Assembly: GCA_964016885.1 (NCBI GenBank)
Contig: OZ024748.1
Location: 57,970,001 to 58,034,000 of the forward strand
Origin: Eledone cirrhosa
Taxonomy: Eukaryota
Length of the DNA: 64,000 nt
Direction: 5' to 3'
Shown here: positions 6,509 to 64,000 of the stretch, in pieces
Numbering within the stretch: position 1 is the first letter of the stretch
Layout: the number at the start of each line of letters is the position of its first letter
Made by a program: the position numbers and the translations under genes
Notes under the pieces: generated by a model
The model's input: only the letters and a program-made list of their open reading frames with translations
Told to the model about the DNA's origin: nothing
The model's database searches: none

Positions 6509-6511
<3 letters not shown>

Positions 6512-7452
6512 AAATGAATACGAGGAACATAAACCATTAAAATATGTTTATATAACAATGCACCTACGAACGTTTCTTTTATCAAGAGCATGGAAAAAAA
6601 AATTATCAATACGCGACCCAGGATGGGTGCATGTGTTGTTATTCCATCAGAGCAGGGGGAGTAACTCTGGCCGGTGCTCGACCAATCATGTCCTACTTGG
6701 TTTTTTATCCATTTATATGGTGGCATTTGTGTTATATGGGTTATATTGGTGCTGTTTCACTAATGCAGGTTCGAGCCAAGTCTGGAATGCACATTTATTA
6801 TTTTGTGGGTGTTGTTTTACTCATGCCGGTTCGTGCAGTGTCTGGGATGTACATTTGGTGCACAGATGTTTGTTTACACCGCCTACCCACCGTAGTGTTA
6901 TGGTTTGGGCAGGTGGAACAGTTTATAGTGTTCATGCCACAGTCGCTTCCCAGGCGAATTCCGAGGCCTGTACTCGGTGCTTACAGTTTATGACTGATTC
7001 AGCCCTGCTGTTTATGTGCTCGTGGGGTGTTCTTATGATGTAGTAAAGCTCCATGCGGCAAAGCTGGCATTTCCTCTTGAAGTTGTAGGGTGCAGCCCTA
7101 CCGACAATATCCCAGTGTGTAGAGAAGCTGATGTTGGCGTCTTTTAATGTAGTGACGTAATTGGCAAGCGATGTGGAGTGCCTTATTTTTTTGTTCCTGA
7201 AAGAGTGGAGATAAGTCCACTCTGGGCGAAACGTACGTAGGTGCATTGTTATATAAACGTGTTTTAACGGTTTATACTCCTTGTATTCATTTCTTTTATA
7301 ATCGCTCTGCTTATTTTTTCTCGCCCACTAAATATTAACGCTTCTAATATTTAACCCTGTAGACACGAGTATTGAGCACATTTGCACAAACGGTTGGCAA
7401 CTAAATATATGTATCGTCCATCTTTCCTTTTTTCTCTCTCTCAATACTAAAT

Positions 7453-7457
<5 letters not shown>
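6509..7457 (-). mobile_element. Truncated Penelope-like element with inverted pLTR end, inside (TA)n
   Basis: Minus ORF 6932-7246 reads HSFRNKK..HSTSLANYV..LKD.NI.F..HWDIV..AAPY..KRKCQLCRMELYYII...INSRAE...CKH, the PLE GIY-YIG C-terminus. Inverted arms of ~67 bp at 6509-6576 and 7228-7295; (TA)n on both sides. Confidence 0.85.
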
Positions 7458-13139: not shown

Positions 13140-13222
<83 letters not shown>

Positions 13223-14536
13223 ACAAACTCTATTTGACTGCGTGATATTAAACCATGTCACGTCCTTCGTATATATACATGACAGTTATGAGGTTTCCGT
13301 AATTGTCAGTCTGCTAAGACATTTTTTGCACTTCCAATTAACACATCATCATACACAAATCACTGTGCAAGTAAATCTATTTGGATGAGCTACCTTTACT
13401 CGGGTATTGTTTTGTGTCTCTACGAAAGGCTTTACAATTAGTAGCTATAATGCCTTAGTTCTTAATGGCAGAATTATAACAGAATACCCATATTAAATTC
13501 ATAGAATAATGGACAGCTTATTCATAATGTATGTCGTTTATAACAATTTGATTTTAAACTATTCGTAAGGATTATTGAAATAGCCCTATAACTTTGCAAA
13601 ACATACCATTTTGAATATCACATTTCGAAGAAAATTCTCTCTATTAACATTTCAGTTTTACAGTTATTTGCCACATCCATCAATCAATAATTATAGTTCA
13701 TCTGTTATGCATGGTAGTAATTAACACTTTGAAAATGCGAGTTGCTCCGTCAACTTTATATATCACTTCCAGAAGCCAGAGCGGCCTAGAATATATATTA
13801 TATACATTTCATCACCATTCTCTATATATCATTTCCTGTTTAAAAATAACATTTCCGATGATATTTCGTTATCTACAAAGCATAATTATACCTAGAGAAA
13901 AAAAAAGCTGCACAGGAAAGAACTAAAGAAGAAATTTACAGAAAAAATATAAATAATTACGCTTCAGATAGAAAAATAAATGATTTATCTATCTGTTGTA
14001 ATACGGACATATGCTTTGATTAATGAAAAAAAGAAAAGAAAAAAATTGTTTCATTGGCGAAATATCGTACACCATGAGTAAATTATCTCAGAGAGAAAAA
14101 GAGAAATACCTGAGAAACACAGCACTAGAAGACAGTCTTATCTGATGTCTTTAGGAAAATTGAAGAAAAATACTGAGAAAGAAGAAAATCTTAATTATGT
14201 GTCATGTGATACCTAAGACACGGATATGGAGATATATCTTAGTACTGCTACATATTGCAAGCATTCGTTTTAACACACGTACACAAACACAAACACACAT
14301 ATATACTGATACACATACACACACACACATATATATATATACACACACACACGTATCATGGGGATCTAATTACCGTTGAATATCAAGTTCATAACGTGTC
14401 TGCCACACTCAGTATTATTGTAACACACACAAACATATATATACGTACGCACACATACATATATATATACACAGAAACCTGTCTGATATGAAACATTTGC
14501 ACTTTGTCATATCTATCCGTATATATGTATATATAT

Positions 14537-16246: not shown

Positions 16247-16249
<3 letters not shown>

Positions 16250-17006
16250 TAAAAGGAAAAGAAAATGCAAGGGGATGCAGAACAATTATATGAAAGACGT
16301 AAAGAAGAAAATTATGAAAATCAACTTTAAGTCGATTTTCATAATTTTCTTATTTACGTCTTTCATATAATTGTTCTGCATCCCTTACATAGACCCACAA
16401 AGTTACTAAGACAAAACATATATATTTGCTAGCATAGGTATGCATCTGTATACAAATCTTGGTAGATATACTAATTCTTTATAATTAACTCCAAATTATT
16501 TGTTGAGCAAAACTTGCCGAAATTACTACTATGGTTCATGGTAGTGGCTAGGCCCTTGTCTTATTAACACTCCACTCCTCACTGATTAACCTCAGTGTCA
16601 CGTGATTGATTCTTTTGAATTTGCCACTGACCTGGTAGGCAGTGAATTTTTTCAATGTCTTGGAATTTAGTCCCCGCTCGCTTTTTTCCATCCACTGAAT
16701 TATTTTTATATAAGTTCCCAGTGTCCTCGCATTGCCTGGAAGCTTAGCTGAGAATAGACTCCCTGATGCCGTAAGGTTTCTCTGTGGATACGCTCCGTAA
16801 CCATATTTATTCCCTTACAGAAACTAATTAGTTGGAGTGAAATCTTAGTAAGTAAGTCGATTTTCATAATTTTCTTGTTTACGTCTTTCATATAATTGTT
16901 CTGCATCCCTTGCATAGAACCGCAAAGTTACTAAGACAAAACATATATATTTGTTAGCATAGGTATGCATCTGTATACATATGTTGGTAGATATACTAAT
17001 TCTTTA
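16247..17006 (+). mobile_element. Non-coding retrozyme/PLE-derived element with direct terminal repeats and a 5' fold-back, inside (TA)n
   Basis: Direct repeats of ~153 bp at 16329-16482 and 16854-17006. Inverted arm 16272-16326 pairs with 16331-16387. HHR at 16758-16838. Confidence 0.75.
16758..16838 (+). ncRNA. Type I hammerhead ribozyme-like motif
   Basis: Stem I ACTCC/GGAGT; core CTGATGc (A9>C); stem II GTAAGG/CCTTAC with a long insert; GAAAC-TAATTA-GTT with palindromic stem III. Confidence 0.7.
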
Positions 17007-39088: not shown

Positions 39089-39140
<52 letters not shown>

Positions 39141-39518
39141 AAAGAGTGAAGAATAACATAGTCGTCTATACAAAAACTGTTTATTTACAGTATTAACAAT
39201 TGTTTTATTGATCAGGTGAGTCTAAATGTCACTGATCACTCGAAATTGCGTCACTCGACCTTAAATACAGTGTGCGTCTCTGATGAAATCATCGGAATAC
39301 TGGAAGCTGTAACTGGTATTTATAGATACATAGGAGAATGAAGCAAATGAAAACAATAACACCAATAATATCCTTAACTCTTTCACTACTATAACTCCAG
39401 GAATAAACTGCATGAGAATTCTCGAAAACTCGCTACCTAACTAAGGAAACCTCTTGTTGGGTCAAACAACGCCCTGGATTAACTCTAACTGGATTAACTA
39501 AAACGACTACATGTCATC

Positions 39519-39559
<41 letters not shown>

Positions 39560-39712
39560 CAAGATGTATGGTAGGTCGTATGTGAATCGCGATGATCACG
39601 TCTGACCTACCAAATATGCGACGGTAGCTAGTTAAGCTCTATGCGTATAAGCAGAGCAGAAATATTAATGAAAAAGAACAAAGGAACTATTATGACATTA
39701 TAACAAGTTTCT

Positions 39713-39758
39713 TGCCGACAGCCGTTTCGTCCGACCATATGGTGGGATTTTCAAGGCA
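39713..39758 (-). ncRNA. Type I hammerhead ribozyme-like motif (inverted copy)
   Basis: Reverse complement of 40289-40335 with a 1-nt deletion at the base of stem II. Confidence 0.7.
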
Positions 39759-40288
39759 TATAACATGTGATTGTAAGTTCATTATTTACATCAACGTATC
39801 ACTTAAGACTAGCAGTTTGAAATTGTGGTATACATCAGCAGCTCCGCTTGTATACTTGGGGTCTATATTCTAAGGGGGCTCTTTTATATTAGTTGTCGGA
39901 ATTGTAAAAGGGATGGGTTGTGGGGAGTTAAGAGAATTTGAAAATGTCCTGAGAGTCAGGGATTGAAGGTTAAAAATTAGATAATTTATAATTTACGTAT
40001 TAAAAGTAAAAGACTTGGGATCTCGTAGAAGCACCCTAAACAATCCCTCAATAAGTGCATAAAGCTTACAGGCCCCAATAAATTTAACAAACTAGAAGAG
40101 ATTAAGAGACTAATAAAATAAAAAAATAAAAAAATGAAGATATAAAGTTTCCCTAAAAACTATAAATTTTCCCTTAGAATATAGACTCCAAATATACAAG
40201 CGGAGCTGCTGATGTATACCACAATTTCAAACTGCTAGTCTTAAGTGATACGTTGATGTAAATAATGAACTTACAATCACATGTTATA

Positions 40289-40335
40289 TGCCTTGAAAAG
40301 TCCCACCATATGGTCGGACGAAACGGCTGTCGGCA
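40289..40335 (+). ncRNA. Minimal type I hammerhead ribozyme-like motif
   Basis: TGCC-TTGAAAA-GTCC(cACCATATGGTc)GGAC-GAAAC-GGCT-GTC-GGCA. All three stems pair; GUC triplet; UUGAAAA variant core. Confidence 0.8.
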
Positions 40336-41256
40336 AGAAACTTGTTATAATGTCATAATAGTTCCTTTGTTCTTTTTCATTAATATATATATATATATAT
40401 ATATACTGCAGTTGTTCTGGGTCGCTTAACACCCCAAACACAGCGAGGCTCCATATAGTTAATGATATTGCAACAGATATTAGGAACTCAATTCATATGC
40501 ATGTTTCAATCTTCTCACAATAAGCGTACCACCCTGTTTCCCTGACGATATGCCTACCTTCCCCCCAATCTACCTATGAACCTCGATGTCTATGTATTAT
40601 TTATTAGCCTATAAAAATCTCTATCTCTCTGACTAAGTATATACATATCTATCTATCTACCTAACAAAGTTCGTGTCTACCTAACTAAATGTTTAGATGT
40701 ATGACAGTTGTAATAACGGTCTTTATCTATTTATATATATATTGATGGATGTATCTATCTCCGTGAAAGGCCAATATTAACAACTTAGTATAGATTCCTA
40801 TGGGTTAAATCAAAGATCGATACATGGATTGGTGGATGGATGTACATGTATATAAAACCATCGCAATTTACTAGATATATGGATATTCATAACTATAGAT
40901 CGTATGGGAGAAAAGTATTGTAAACATAAAATGAAATACGAGGATTGGTTGTAGGTAAAGGAAGACTGAGGATTCAATCAAGTTCACAGATATTGCTGTA
41001 ATCATACAGTTATTATATCATACAGTTATTATATCATACAGTTATTATATTATTATTTACTAAACTTGAATATGATGCTTGAATAATAATACTGCACTCC
41101 TCATACATACGTGTCTAATGTGTTTGTAGGCCACAACATCAGTAACAGTCACTAACGTATATTTTACAATAATTATATTATATATGAATGCATGCATGCT
41201 CACGCATGTGTAATATAGAGGTGGTATGGTATGCACACCCACCCACAACCACACAT

Positions 41257-41322
<66 letters not shown>

Positions 41323-41325
<3 letters not shown>

Positions 41326-41595
41326 CACATTTCGCTCTACATGGCTGAATACAATATATGTAATCTGAGTTTTACAATATTAATAATAATATTCGATTCG
41401 TTTGCAATTACGCAAGCAAGCCTCAATGTTATAGCCATGTCAGTAGAATGAACACTTCATTCTTGCTCTTGTGTTGGCATGCGAACCTGCATGCCAACAC
41501 AAGAGCAAGAATGAAGTGTTCATTCTACTGACATGGCTATAACATTGAGGCTTGCTTGCATAATTCGAATAATATTCGAAAAACTCAGATTACAT
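41323..41595. mobile_element. Fold-back insert in (TA)n with 71-bp perfect stem
   Basis: 41412-41482 pairs perfectly with 41489-41559 around loop GAACCT. Outer stem 41358-41373/41580-41595; ~35-bp one-sided tail. Confidence 0.85.
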
Positions 41596-41778
41596 TTATT
41601 ATATATATATATATTATTAGAAATGTAAGCCATCGCCGCATTTTGATTAAAGATATTAAAGAAATTATTTAGCCTGATAGTGGGGTTAAGAACCCTCAGA
41701 GAAATGGAAAAAGATGAGTATTGACGTACATATATATAAATATACGCGATTATACGCGAGTCCTTTGCTCCGTTATTT

Positions 41779-48927: not shown

Positions 48928-48972
<45 letters not shown>

Positions 48973-49169
48973 CTTATCTCGTTTGTGATCCTGCTTCTAT
49001 TGTGTACGCCTGAAGAAGGGCTAAAGCGAGCCAGGTCGAAATCCTTTTCCATTTTCCATATAAAGCATGGAAACTAAGAAGACTTGTTGTACCTCTGTTT
49101 ATTGCCCCATCCAACTATAAATATGTCATAAAATGCTGTAGTTTGCTTGAAGCATTTTATATAATATAT

Positions 49170-49421
49170 AACTTTGAAAGAGATAGAAGGTTAAACAATG
49201 CAAAATGGACTGAAAGATGAGGTAACGAAAAGTAAGTTACATGGTAATATGTGTTGTCTTCTGTAGTTGTTTTTTTTCTGTCCAATATTTCGGGACCTAA
49301 AAATTCTTTCTTCGGGGTTTAAAGAATTTCAGAGGATAATTTACAAATTATCTAAAACAAAGATTACCATGTAACTTACTTTTCGTTGCCTTATCTTACA
49401 GTCCATATTGCCTTGTATCTC
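49170..49421. mobile_element. TA-flanked insert with 49-bp inverted arms
   Basis: 49200-49248 matches the reverse complement of 49363-49411 (about 4 mismatches). Confidence 0.7.
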
Positions 49422-58901: not shown

Positions 58902-59869
<968 letters not shown>

Positions 59870-60059
59870 AACGAAGGCGGTGTGGACCATAACGCACCAG
59901 AGTACTCAATACTTAGGGTAGTAGAGTGGGTAATAGGAAAATGTTTGACCCCGACGGCAGAGCTCAGGCCGTTTCGACGGCTATTTCTGAACTAAATTTA
60001 GTCCAGAAATAGATGTCGAAACGGCCTGAGCTCTCTGCCGTCGGGGTCAAACATTTTCC

Positions 60060-60061
<2 letters not shown>
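59870..60061. mobile_element. Fold-back insert: ~63-bp arms each with an HHR 3' half, plus tail
   Basis: Arms 59934-59996 and 59997-60061; GAAACGGC...GCCGTC-GGGGTC at 60018-60048; tail 59870-59933 shared with 24091 and 31192. Confidence 0.8.
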
Positions 60062-60101
<40 letters not shown>

Positions 60102-61789: not shown

Positions 61790-62737
61790 ATTATTTTAGG
61801 AGGCAAGTTCTGAGTTCAAATCCCGCCGAGGTTGACTTTGCCTTTCATCCTTACGGGGTCGATAAAATAAAGTACCTGTAATGCACTGGATAATTGCTGG
61901 CCTTGTGCCTAAAGTAGAAACAATTATTTTAGGAGGCAAGTGGATTGGCAGTATCGGTAGCATGTCGGACGCCATGCTTTGTAGCACAGTTACGTCCCTT
62001 TACGGACTGAGTTCAAATTTCGCGGAGGTTAACTTTGCCTTTCATCCTTACGGGGTTGATAAAATAAAGTACCAGTAATACACTTTGATAGTTGCTGGCC
62101 TTGTGCTAAAAGAAGAAACAATTATTTTAGGAGGCAGGTGTATTGGCAGTATCGGTAGAGGATCGGACGCCATGCTTTGAAGCAAAGAGTTACGGCCCTT
62201 TATGCTCTGAGTTCAAATTCCACCGATGTTAACTTTGCCTTTCATCCTTACGGGGTCGATAAAATAAAGTACCAGTCACGCACTGGAGTCGATTTAGTCG
62301 ACTTTCCCCTCCTCCAAAATTGCTGGCCTTGTGCCTAAATAAGAAACCATTATTTTAGGAAGCAGGTGGATTGGCAGTAACGGTAGAGAGTCGGACACCA
62401 TGCTTTGAAGCATAGAGTTACGTCCCTTTACGGTCTGAGTTCAAATCCCGCCGAGGTTGTCGATAAAATAAAGTACCAGTAATACACTGGGTTTGTGCTG
62501 GCCTTATGCCAAAAGTAGAAACAATTATTTTAGGAGGCAGGTGCATTGGCAGTATCGGTAGAGAGTCGGACGCCAGCTTTGCAACAAAGAGTTACGGCCC
62601 TTTATGGTCTGAGTTCAAATCCCACCGAGGTTAACTTGCGTTTAATACTTACGGGGTCGATAAAGTAATGTACCAGTAATACACTGGGATAATTGCTGGC
62701 CTTGTGCCAAAAGTAGAAAGAATTATTTTAGGAGGCA
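61790..62737 (+). mobile_element. Head-to-tail array of five SINE copies separated by a 16-bp site
   Basis: ATTATTTTAGGAGGCA at 61790, 61923, 62121, 62349 (one mismatch), 62524 and 62722. Confidence 0.92.
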
Positions 62738-64000
62738 GGTGTGCGTTTGTTTTTTATTGCCGCTGGCATACATGTGGGATGAGGCTGTCTTCTTTTCTCC
62801 AACAATGATGTCAAACTTGTGAACAGTAATCTTGAGAAGGGAAGTTTACTGTTGATTGATTTGAATTTTGAAAGGAATATCCTACGTTCAGGAAACCATT
62901 TTGCTTTCAGCTTTGCTAAATCGATCAATGAATTATAGACAATTCTAAGTAGTTTTAACACTTCTTCACAAATATTTTAATTATCATCATCCTCATCATC
63001 ATTATTCCCTTCATCTTGATCAAAAACAATATATCCTCCTGTTAATCATCCGCACCATCAGCAATAGCTTTCTCAAAATTGTCAGCATCATCATCGCTAA
63101 CATCACAATCATCATTACACTAGGCTCAAGCAGTCCCTATTACTCATTCTCATTAAAAACTTTGGATTCCTCCCCAGCCAGTTAATATATTGTAAACTTC
63201 AATAAATGTTAGGAGATTCTCCTTCATTGGAATTATTGTACACGAACAGATTTACCATTGAAACACATTATTTGTCCATTTCTTCAGAACGACATCTTTG
63301 GTTTAATAAAGTGACCTACTTGTCCAATGAGACTTACTTGTACAAATAGATGTGTACGAAGAGACTTACTGAATTAAAAACGAGTGTTGGGATAATGTGT
63401 ATGAAGAGTCTTTACTGAATTAAAAACGAGTGTTGGGATAATGTGCTGCCTTAATTGTGCGAATGCAAACCAACGCCATTAGGTTTCTCTTAATACAATT
63501 CTAAAAATGTCTAACAATATGTTTTTAAATTGATACGTGAAAACAAAAAGAATATCGGTTAAAATGCTGATTATAATAGGAAATACGTTGTTCACGATGA
63601 GCAGGAGAAAAGGACTAGAAAAATAGAAAAATGAATGAAAAACGATTAAAGATGTTTTGGGGTGGGGAAGTCTGACTGGAGTAACGTGGAACAAGAATGG
63701 CTGTATAGTTTATGGCGTACATTAACGGCTGAAACCTTCACAAAGTTGAAAACTCTAAACATATCCATGCATGATGATCAGTATGTTGCTAATAATAATA
63801 CTGACAATAATGATTAACGGTGAAAAATGACACGTTCGAACTTAAGTTAAACTGACAAAACCCATTTATCTTTCACTCCGCTACTGCTTTATTTTTCTTT
63901 GAAAATTGTCTACGGTGAGCGTTGAAGTGAATGTAACAGTTTTGTGAATTAGTGAATAAACCGTAACACTAATTCTATTTATTTTCCTTAAAATAGCAAA

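Follow-up and report, generated by a model that had tools for sequence, protein, structure and literature searches.

The locus at 39558-40386 of the window, by which we mean the whole 64,000-nt stretch of DNA analysed, is best explained as a two-armed, 5'-truncated copy of a high-copy hammerhead repeat in (TA)n, likely inserted by the reverse transcriptase (RT) and GIY-YIG endonuclease of a Penelope-like element (PLE) and carrying a ribozyme that is likely silent. We give this reading a probability of about 80%. The locus has a head-to-head inverted, 5'-truncated pLTR, a one-sided tail, fixed ends and a hammerhead within the pLTR. The element likely behaves as a Penelope-type insertion, known here as a truncated copy without RT or endonuclease ORF. 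The window is AT-rich animal DNA crowded with (TA)n runs and dispersed repeats, and its longer frames include none that Pfam recognises as protein-coding. The host is likely a cephalopod, judging from a SINE-like repeat that may be of octopus type and from a 13-nt exact match between the element at 59858 and the 3' end of the Hydra-1_Obim consensus.

Structure of the locus

The features of the locus are listed in Table 1. The two inverted arms differ in three of 216 aligned columns, by substitutions at 39855/40192 and 39860/40187 and by one indel, which agrees with the first-pass annotation of an inverted pLTR pair with arms of about 215 bp and about three differences. Both ends of the element adjoin (TA)n. 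No palindrome was found at the head-to-head junction 40170/40171. At 40149-40186 the last spacer bases and the first stub bases show an imperfect 19-nt tandem likeness; it is possibly junction filler, and the main copy without it would be about 592 nt.

Table 1. Features of the inverted hammerhead element and its borders (window coordinates)
Feature	Position	Strand	Basis or remark
Tail-side (long-end) (TA)n run; likely target site, left half	39521-39557	none	other copies also reach (TA)n at about 39553
5'-truncated main copy of 613 nt, made up of spacer-unique part, pLTR arm and tail	39558-40170	-	read contigs
Tail (3' extension), 104 nt, main copy only	39558-39661	-	arm alignment
Large hairpin of the tail, with a 9-bp outer stem, an inner stem and an internal loop	39569-39612	-	ends 11 nt inside the long end
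Small bulged hairpin, candidate marker of reverse-transcription start	39636-39657	-	begins 4 nt behind the short end
pLTR arm of main copy, 215 nt	39662-39876	-	arm alignment
Damaged hammerhead of main copy, G10.1 missing	39713-39758	-	missed by descriptor and Rfam
294-nt part single in the window; family sequence upstream of pLTR arm	39877-40170	-	reads; no recognisable protein
Inverted 5'-truncated stub (inverted pLTR), 216 nt, head-to-head at 40170/40171, ends at the family short end	40171-40386	+	
Intact type I hammerhead, U3-A8	40289-40335	+	descriptor, folding, weak Rfam match
Short-end (TA)n run; likely target site, right half	40383-40405	none	

Hammerhead motif

On the plus strand, stem I is formed by 40289-92 and 40332-35 (4 bp), and the core UUGAAAA at 40293-99 contains U3 and A8. 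Stem II (40300-19) consists of 4 bp, a C.C mismatch, 3 bp and a 4-nt loop. The GAAA box is at 40320-23 and the GUC triplet at 40329-31, with the predicted cut after C40331, while stem III is an 8-nt self-complementary sequence with G.U pairs (dimer type). The motif has the Watson-Crick 3-8 pair, the GAAA and the NUH triplet of a type I core. The U3-A8 pair in place of C3-G8, the UUGAAAA core and the GUC triplet had been described before and are present as described. Of the three paired stems also claimed, stem III was overstated, with 2 bp and a monomer pairing probability of 0.00-0.02. The hammerhead had been called the best-formed one. The motif is indeed intact, but it belongs to the short inverted stub; in the main, tail-bearing copy G10.1 has been lost, and with it the G10.1-C11.1 pair. 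Neither position of the stem II C.C mismatch (40304 and 40315) is variable among the family reads listed.

A hammerhead descriptor applied to the whole window gave two matches, and only the one at 40289-40335 has a palindrome of at least 6 nt. Forty block-wise dinucleotide shuffles gave a mean of 0.25 matches, and none of the 40 equalled this one. Rfam Hammerhead_1 aligned with its whole model to 40292-40337 at 17.6 bits (E 0.63); its gathering score is 34, and nothing in the Rfam scan of the window reached a gathering score. The damaged hammerhead of the main copy was matched by neither descriptor nor Rfam. The exact 23-nt hammerhead pattern had no occurrence in metagenome contigs.

Predicted folding and cleavage

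In the monomer, stem II is predicted to pair with probability of about 1.0, stem I with 0.00-0.31 and stem III with 0.00-0.02; competing pairing reached 0.69-0.90 in three of four fragments folded. The 81-nt monomer was no more stable than shuffles (z -0.9). By prediction, the stem III palindrome pairs only in a dimer. The double-hammerhead dimer, at -37.9 kcal/mol with all three helices present, lies within 0.5 of the cofold minimum (-38.4) and about 11 below two monomer minima (-26.6). We predict that the monomer is inactive and that the dimer is favourable, which agrees with published accounts of metazoan PLE hammerheads as dimer-dependent and weakly active (PMC4209133) and of the Poseidon_Ac hammerhead as cleaving with the assistance of protein (PMC11167929).

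A transcript reading through the whole locus folds with an arm-arm pairing probability of 1.0 and a stem II probability of 0.0, so the ribozyme is predicted to be buried in a 215-bp duplex. Because the two motifs lie on opposite strands, one transcript carries at most one hammerhead. This arrangement, together with the arm-arm pairing, means that the ribozyme at this locus is likely a silent relic. By the same folding, cleavage could occur only for a transcript begun within the spacer or stub and pairing in trans. The best-looking hammerhead of such a pair may thus be the one unable to act.

Family copies, orientation and ends

Contigs and RAD reads of organism A and nine contigs of organism B were aligned to the element, and the statements about the family rest on short contigs and RAD reads of few loci. 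Over the element the depths of X1 contigs summed to 1,134-42,572, compared with 11-13 over the unique right flank. The family is high-copy; the summed depth shows this without being a copy number, and X1 may be the source sample.

The family is continuous over the left boundary of the spacer: an X4 contig at 39846-39964 (depth 58) crosses 39876/39877 ungapped, and past 39878 one X1 and one X2 contig carry the spacer sequence of the window. It is thin over the right boundary, the X6 depth being 133 at 39871-39937 against 5 at 40139-40205, although the latter bin touches a skipped repeat. These observations indicate that the main copy is the minus strand from 40170 to 39558, with the tail, and that the right arm is an inverted 5'-truncated stub. 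A family variant without 55 nt at 39900-39954 was also present (X4 depth 73; 120 X6 reads with 19 starts).

Other copies end in (TA)n at 39662 (five X1 contigs, five X2 contigs and 25 X7 reads) and at about 39553 (one X1 and two X2 contigs). The family has two fixed ends, 104 nt apart. The short end is located in an AT-rich, target-like octamer. Ten X7 reads end in (TA)n at 39758, immediately 5' of stem I on the sense strand; this is possibly a third family end at an internal TA-like stretch, and perhaps a single locus. Two X4 contigs join copies head-to-head at other places, 39653 to 40268 in one and 40039 to 40309 in the other. The first of these joints is known from a single contig of depth 17 with 30 letters on its short side, and its long arm is tail only.

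There were 31 variable sites at a frequency of at least 5% among the family reads and contigs over 39550-39880. The hammerhead variants are located at position 7 (A or U), in loop II and in distal stem I, and distal stem II has one minor variant. No variant was listed for U3, U4, G5, A6, A8, GAAA, stem III and the proximal stems, 10.1 excepted, where A replaces G in about 5% of X1, 31% of X2 and 12% of X7 depth. Only one of 34 critical hammerhead sites (10.1) is variable, against 3.3 expected (P about 0.13 for at most one). The entry at 39748 was not counted as a change of A9, since this is how the alignment renders G10.1 together with U at position 7. No compensatory changes in the hammerhead helices were found in the reads and contigs of this young family.

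Tail and its hairpins

The tail was first given as 107 bp with its own hairpin. The hairpin was confirmed by its 9-bp stem and by folding, and the tail measures 104 nt, or 106-107 nt when TA-ambiguous bases are counted. The 107-nt form folds better than all 200 shuffles on each strand (z -3.2 and -3.5), and 51 nt chosen around the large hairpin gave z -5.4.

In the outer stem of the large hairpin, 39569-77 pairs with 39604-12. This hairpin had been suggested as a recognition signal whose conservation among copies could be checked, and the check went against it: two of the 18 stem positions are variable, with 1.7 expected. The variant at 39607 makes up 13% of X1 and 18% of X2 depth and 122 of 142 X7 reads (three starts), and that at 39576 makes up 0% of X1 depth and 193 of 206 X7 reads (five starts). 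Each breaks a sense-strand pair, and neither is compensated. The large hairpin is thus real as a fold but no better conserved than average, and conservation does not support it as a signal. In PMC11167929 the tail is reported to be required for endonuclease recognition, so a role of the tail in protein recognition is an idea already published.

For the stem of the small hairpin no variant was listed (1.4 expected, P 0.23). The sole variant listed within it lies at the loop edge, 39650, and the common allele adds a pair. The element at 59858-60062, unrelated in sequence, has a hairpin of the same topology that starts 6 nt behind its short end. A descriptor of this hairpin, defined after both had been seen, is present in two of six tails examined with a background of 1.4%. 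One and the same 11-mer is found at 7304-7314 (+) and 39647-39657 (-), 9 and 4 nt behind the short ends; the two elements are otherwise unalignable, and the 3' strand of the hairpin is missing in the 7304-7314 element.

Coding capacity of the window

No RT or GIY-YIG endonuclease was found in the window with Pfam, which was applied to the 149 longest complex stop-to-stop frames (at least 70 aa) of 278 frames of at least 55 aa and gave no match at the curated cut-off. Pfam likewise matched none of twelve read-through frames, six from the spacer and six from the interior of 6577-7232. The 294-nt spacer had no protein match on either strand, including the minus frame at E up to 10 and Atlas. We rejected the plus-strand spacer as a GIY-YIG C-terminus: the searches were blank and the reads show that this strand is antisense. 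One spacer frame has a CxxC reminiscent of Hydra endonucleases; the likeness is weak and the CxxC is lost in the family majority allele. The (TA)n target fits the Hydra clade, and the extra base at each stem II end is absent; Hydra-clade hammerheads are described as usually having this base, some being listed without it (PMC8557442).

Terminal redundancy of the main copy and a tandem copy in the window were not found, and the locus does not show the tandem units, each with a hammerhead, of a retrozyme. A circular joint from the tail end back to the spacer was not listed, and both places lie within skipped repeat stretches.

Insertion mechanism and alternatives

A plausible course of events would begin with a PLE protein nicking (TA)n. 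From each of the two DNA 3' ends, reverse transcription of the same family RNA would be primed: at the long start for one cDNA, of 613 nt with the tail, and at the short start for the other, of 216 nt. The truncated cDNAs would then be joined head-to-head at 40170/40171 and repaired, and three later mutations would have followed, one of which deleted G10.1 from the main copy. In the tandem transcripts of the parent, two hammerheads would pair via the stem III palindrome and are predicted to cut after GUC. The copy with the 39653-40268 joint fits PLE insertion from two starts, because its tail-only long arm could not have templated its short arm. Among TA-bounded intervals in the window, five of 39 have one arm flush and the other extended.

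Several observations count against the preferred reading: neither RT nor endonuclease was found in the window by Pfam, and the part upstream of the pLTR arm had no protein match; the short end is target-like and AT-rich, and endonuclease cutting or microhomology could set such an end; the A at 10.1 in about 5-31% of depth shows that the core context is not strictly conserved; and the tail is 104 nt against the published 30-40. We propose, tentatively and with more doubt than confidence, that the arms are independent cDNAs from the two ends of one (TA)n cut, made from a single RNA at two fixed starts, and that the small hairpin positions the Penelope RT. If true, priming from two ends would be a general mechanism of PLEs, guided by an RNA signal that can be identified, and their tails could be much longer than described.

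It is rather doubtful that the inverted stub was instead copied from DNA, by fold-back or template switch onto the first cDNA or by self-priming on an antisense template, with endonuclease resolution at the AT-rich short end producing the tail asymmetry. The alleles private to both arms would fit a single DNA molecule equally well, the short end lies in a target-like octamer, and both an endonuclease-mediated resolution that leaves the tail (PMC8557442) and self-priming (PMC3846280) have been proposed; but the stub begins 294 nt from the truncation point without a junction palindrome, the short arm of the 39653-40268 copy is not contained in its long arm (one contig), and in vitro RT starts at both tail boundaries are described for another PLE (PMC11167929). 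An older insertion, up to about 2.6% from the family majority, whose arms were homogenised by gene conversion between the inverted repeats seems unlikely to us. About four differences from the majority are shared by the arms, one of them unseen in other copies, and tail and spacer have diverged too, but a single already diverged template yields the same numbers without an extra event, and three arm-specific differences persist. That the locus is a MITE-like or chance palindrome in which a string resembles a hammerhead by accident is hardly credible: the Rfam score below gathering and the monomer z of -0.9 would suit it, against which stand the shuffles (0/40 as good), the self-complementary stem III, the confinement of family variation to position 7, loop II and distal stem I, and ends that are asymmetric unlike terminal inverted repeats.

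A further question concerns only the parent and is compatible with the preferred reading. The parent may have been a non-coding retrozyme, a small circular RNA processed by hammerheads, about 600 nt or longer and mobilised in trans by a PLE, or else the 3' end of a coding PLE; we hold the retrozyme to be a real possibility, at somewhat less than even odds. Upstream of the cut site 453 nt contain no recognisable ORF, the depth of the family does not drop within the spacer, where the 55-nt deletion variant exists, and retrozymes are described as deriving from PLE pLTRs (bioRxiv 10.64898/2026.07.22.740005); against this, no tandem copy or terminal redundancy was found, no tail-to-spacer joint was listed outside the skipped repeat stretches, and an X5 contig runs 86 letters beyond 40159 into sequence that is not the tail. 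Quite improbable, in our opinion, is a Naiad-type PLE with a C-terminal RT, whose ORF would end near 39993 and whose complete U3-A8 hammerhead would be missed by the published string search for C3-G8. One minus frame, inspected by eye, has K-x3-R-x-P-x2-F with G-A upstream in its last 30 codons, in the same spacing as at the end of a Naiad ORF in the supplement of PMC8557442; read in this frame, the family majority alleles at 40036, 40041 and 40083 cause conservative changes or none; and Naiads are described as targeting (TA)n (PMC8557442). This motif was picked after the fact and has two in-frame stops ahead of it, no homolog was found at E up to 10 and no match with Pfam or Atlas, three octopus Naiad 3' ends in PMC8557442 showed no likeness by eye, and the short motifs of the element were absent from the part of the PMC8557442 supplement searched. 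The hammerhead here is complete; Naiads are said to be without a canonical one (PMC8557442).

Age and shared alleles

Three arm differences correspond to 0.70% per arm (95% range 0.14-2.0%). By the family majority, the change at 39855 and the loss of G10.1 occurred in the main arm and that at 40187 in the stub. With the octopus calibration of 0.09 for 25 million years (PMC13282606), the arm divergence would be about 2 million years (0.4-5.7), only if the host is a cephalopod. The insertion had been called recent; the near identity of the arms holds, but the 0.7% dates the arm divergence only, and conversion could have lowered it.

Both arms carry 39711C/40337G, an allele seen in none of 136 X7 reads and nowhere in the X1 depth of 26 contigs. 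The alleles 39804T/40243A are also common to both arms, and 168 of 173 X7 reads differ. In total, both arms share about four differences from the family majority in 215 nt; the tail differs at about three of 104 sites and the spacer at no fewer than five of 294. The rare alleles common to both arms imply one template molecule or later homogenisation. ADAR-type editing as a source of the private alleles was ruled out by the mixed spectrum. The locus warns that arm identity is not insertion age.

Comparison with known systems

The inverted pLTR, the one-sided tail, hammerheads on opposite strands, TA targeting and U3-A8 are all published for PLEs, so this single locus in itself matters little. 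Of remaining interest are the length of the tail, 104 nt, the existence of two fixed ends in the family and the small bulged hairpin that lies just behind the shorter one. In the literature covered, mostly open-access, we found no report of a 100-nt tail, of a bulged-hairpin signal or of two-ended or twin priming in PLEs. The locus offers a clean case in which to test how inverted pLTRs and one-sided tails arise in PLEs, and is suited to an in vitro PLE assay because the arms share private alleles, the two ends lie 104 nt apart and a candidate hairpin is available.

Metazoan PLE pLTR hammerheads are described as type I, with a short stem I and a small palindromic stem III that needs a dimer, and as 100-700 bp apart on opposite strands; about 1,300 hits with U3-A8 are given for Schistosoma Cercyon (Cervera and de la Pena 2014, PMC4209133). 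The hammerheads here are the same in type, short stem I, dimer-type stem III, opposite strands and U3-A8, but there is no extra base between A9 and 10.1, the 8-nt palindrome has G.U pairs and stem II has a C.C mismatch. In nature C3-G8 is reported to covary to U3-A8, which is active in vitro (Perreault et al. 2011, PMC3088659), and the core here shows no difference from those described there.

For EN+ PLEs, an inverted 5'-truncated pLTR, a one-sided tail of 30-40 bp and a TA bias are described (Arkhipova et al. 2013, PMC3846280; Craig et al. 2021, PMC8557442), with (TA)n targeting in the Hydra and Naiad clades (PMC8557442), and a 218-bp pLTR is known in a PLE (PMC3846280). Our locus matches them in the head-to-head inverted copy, the arm of about 215 bp, the tail at one end and the (TA)n target, and differs in the 104-nt tail, in having no ORF left and in the lack of a junction palindrome. 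In Poseidon_Ac two internal RT starts are described as bounding the tail (Frangieh et al. 2024, PMC11167929). In both systems two fixed ends downstream of the hammerhead bound the tail, the target is AT-rich and a stem-loop is near the starts. In Poseidon_Ac, however, the ORF begins in stem II and the tail is coding (PMC11167929), whereas the frame from the ATG in loop II here stops after 36 codons and the ATG varies in the family.

Metazoan non-LTR retrozymes (PMC7229834; bioRxiv 10.64898/2026.07.22.740005) are likewise high-copy and apparently non-coding with a type I hammerhead, and the dimer dependence predicted here is as in the axolotl retrozymes of the same sources. The element here differs from retrozymes in its size, at least 613 nt against 150-450 bp, and in that no tandem unit or circular junction was found.

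Neighbouring elements in the window

An adjacent TA-flanked, very high-copy element at 39139-39520 has a minus-strand hammerhead-like motif with a 5-bp stem I, a stem II region of about 100 nt and a palindromic stem III. At 39206 the copy in the window carries A in place of G12, a position that is G in nearly all the remaining depth; its position 4 is C, as in one X4 contig (depth 101). U4C is described as a natural hammerhead variant (PMC3088659).

Other TA-bounded inverted insertions with one arm flush were observed at 6510-7457, 41324-41599, 48971-49421 and 59858-60062, the other arm being extended by 163, 30, 224 and 76 nt, respectively. At 59858-59876 (-), at the TA-abutting end, there is a 13-nt exact match to the last bases of the Hydra-1_Obim consensus. 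Both arms are flush at 13172-14328, and 16248-17004 combines a fold-back with a direct 152-nt repeat. The inverted pairs 23724-23874/24309-24463 (94%) and 35761-35862/36014-36115 (83%) were covered by the window-wide hammerhead descriptor. A SINE-like repeat of about 199 bp, which may be an octopus SINE, is tandem at 61810-62743 and dispersed at about 15 sites elsewhere.
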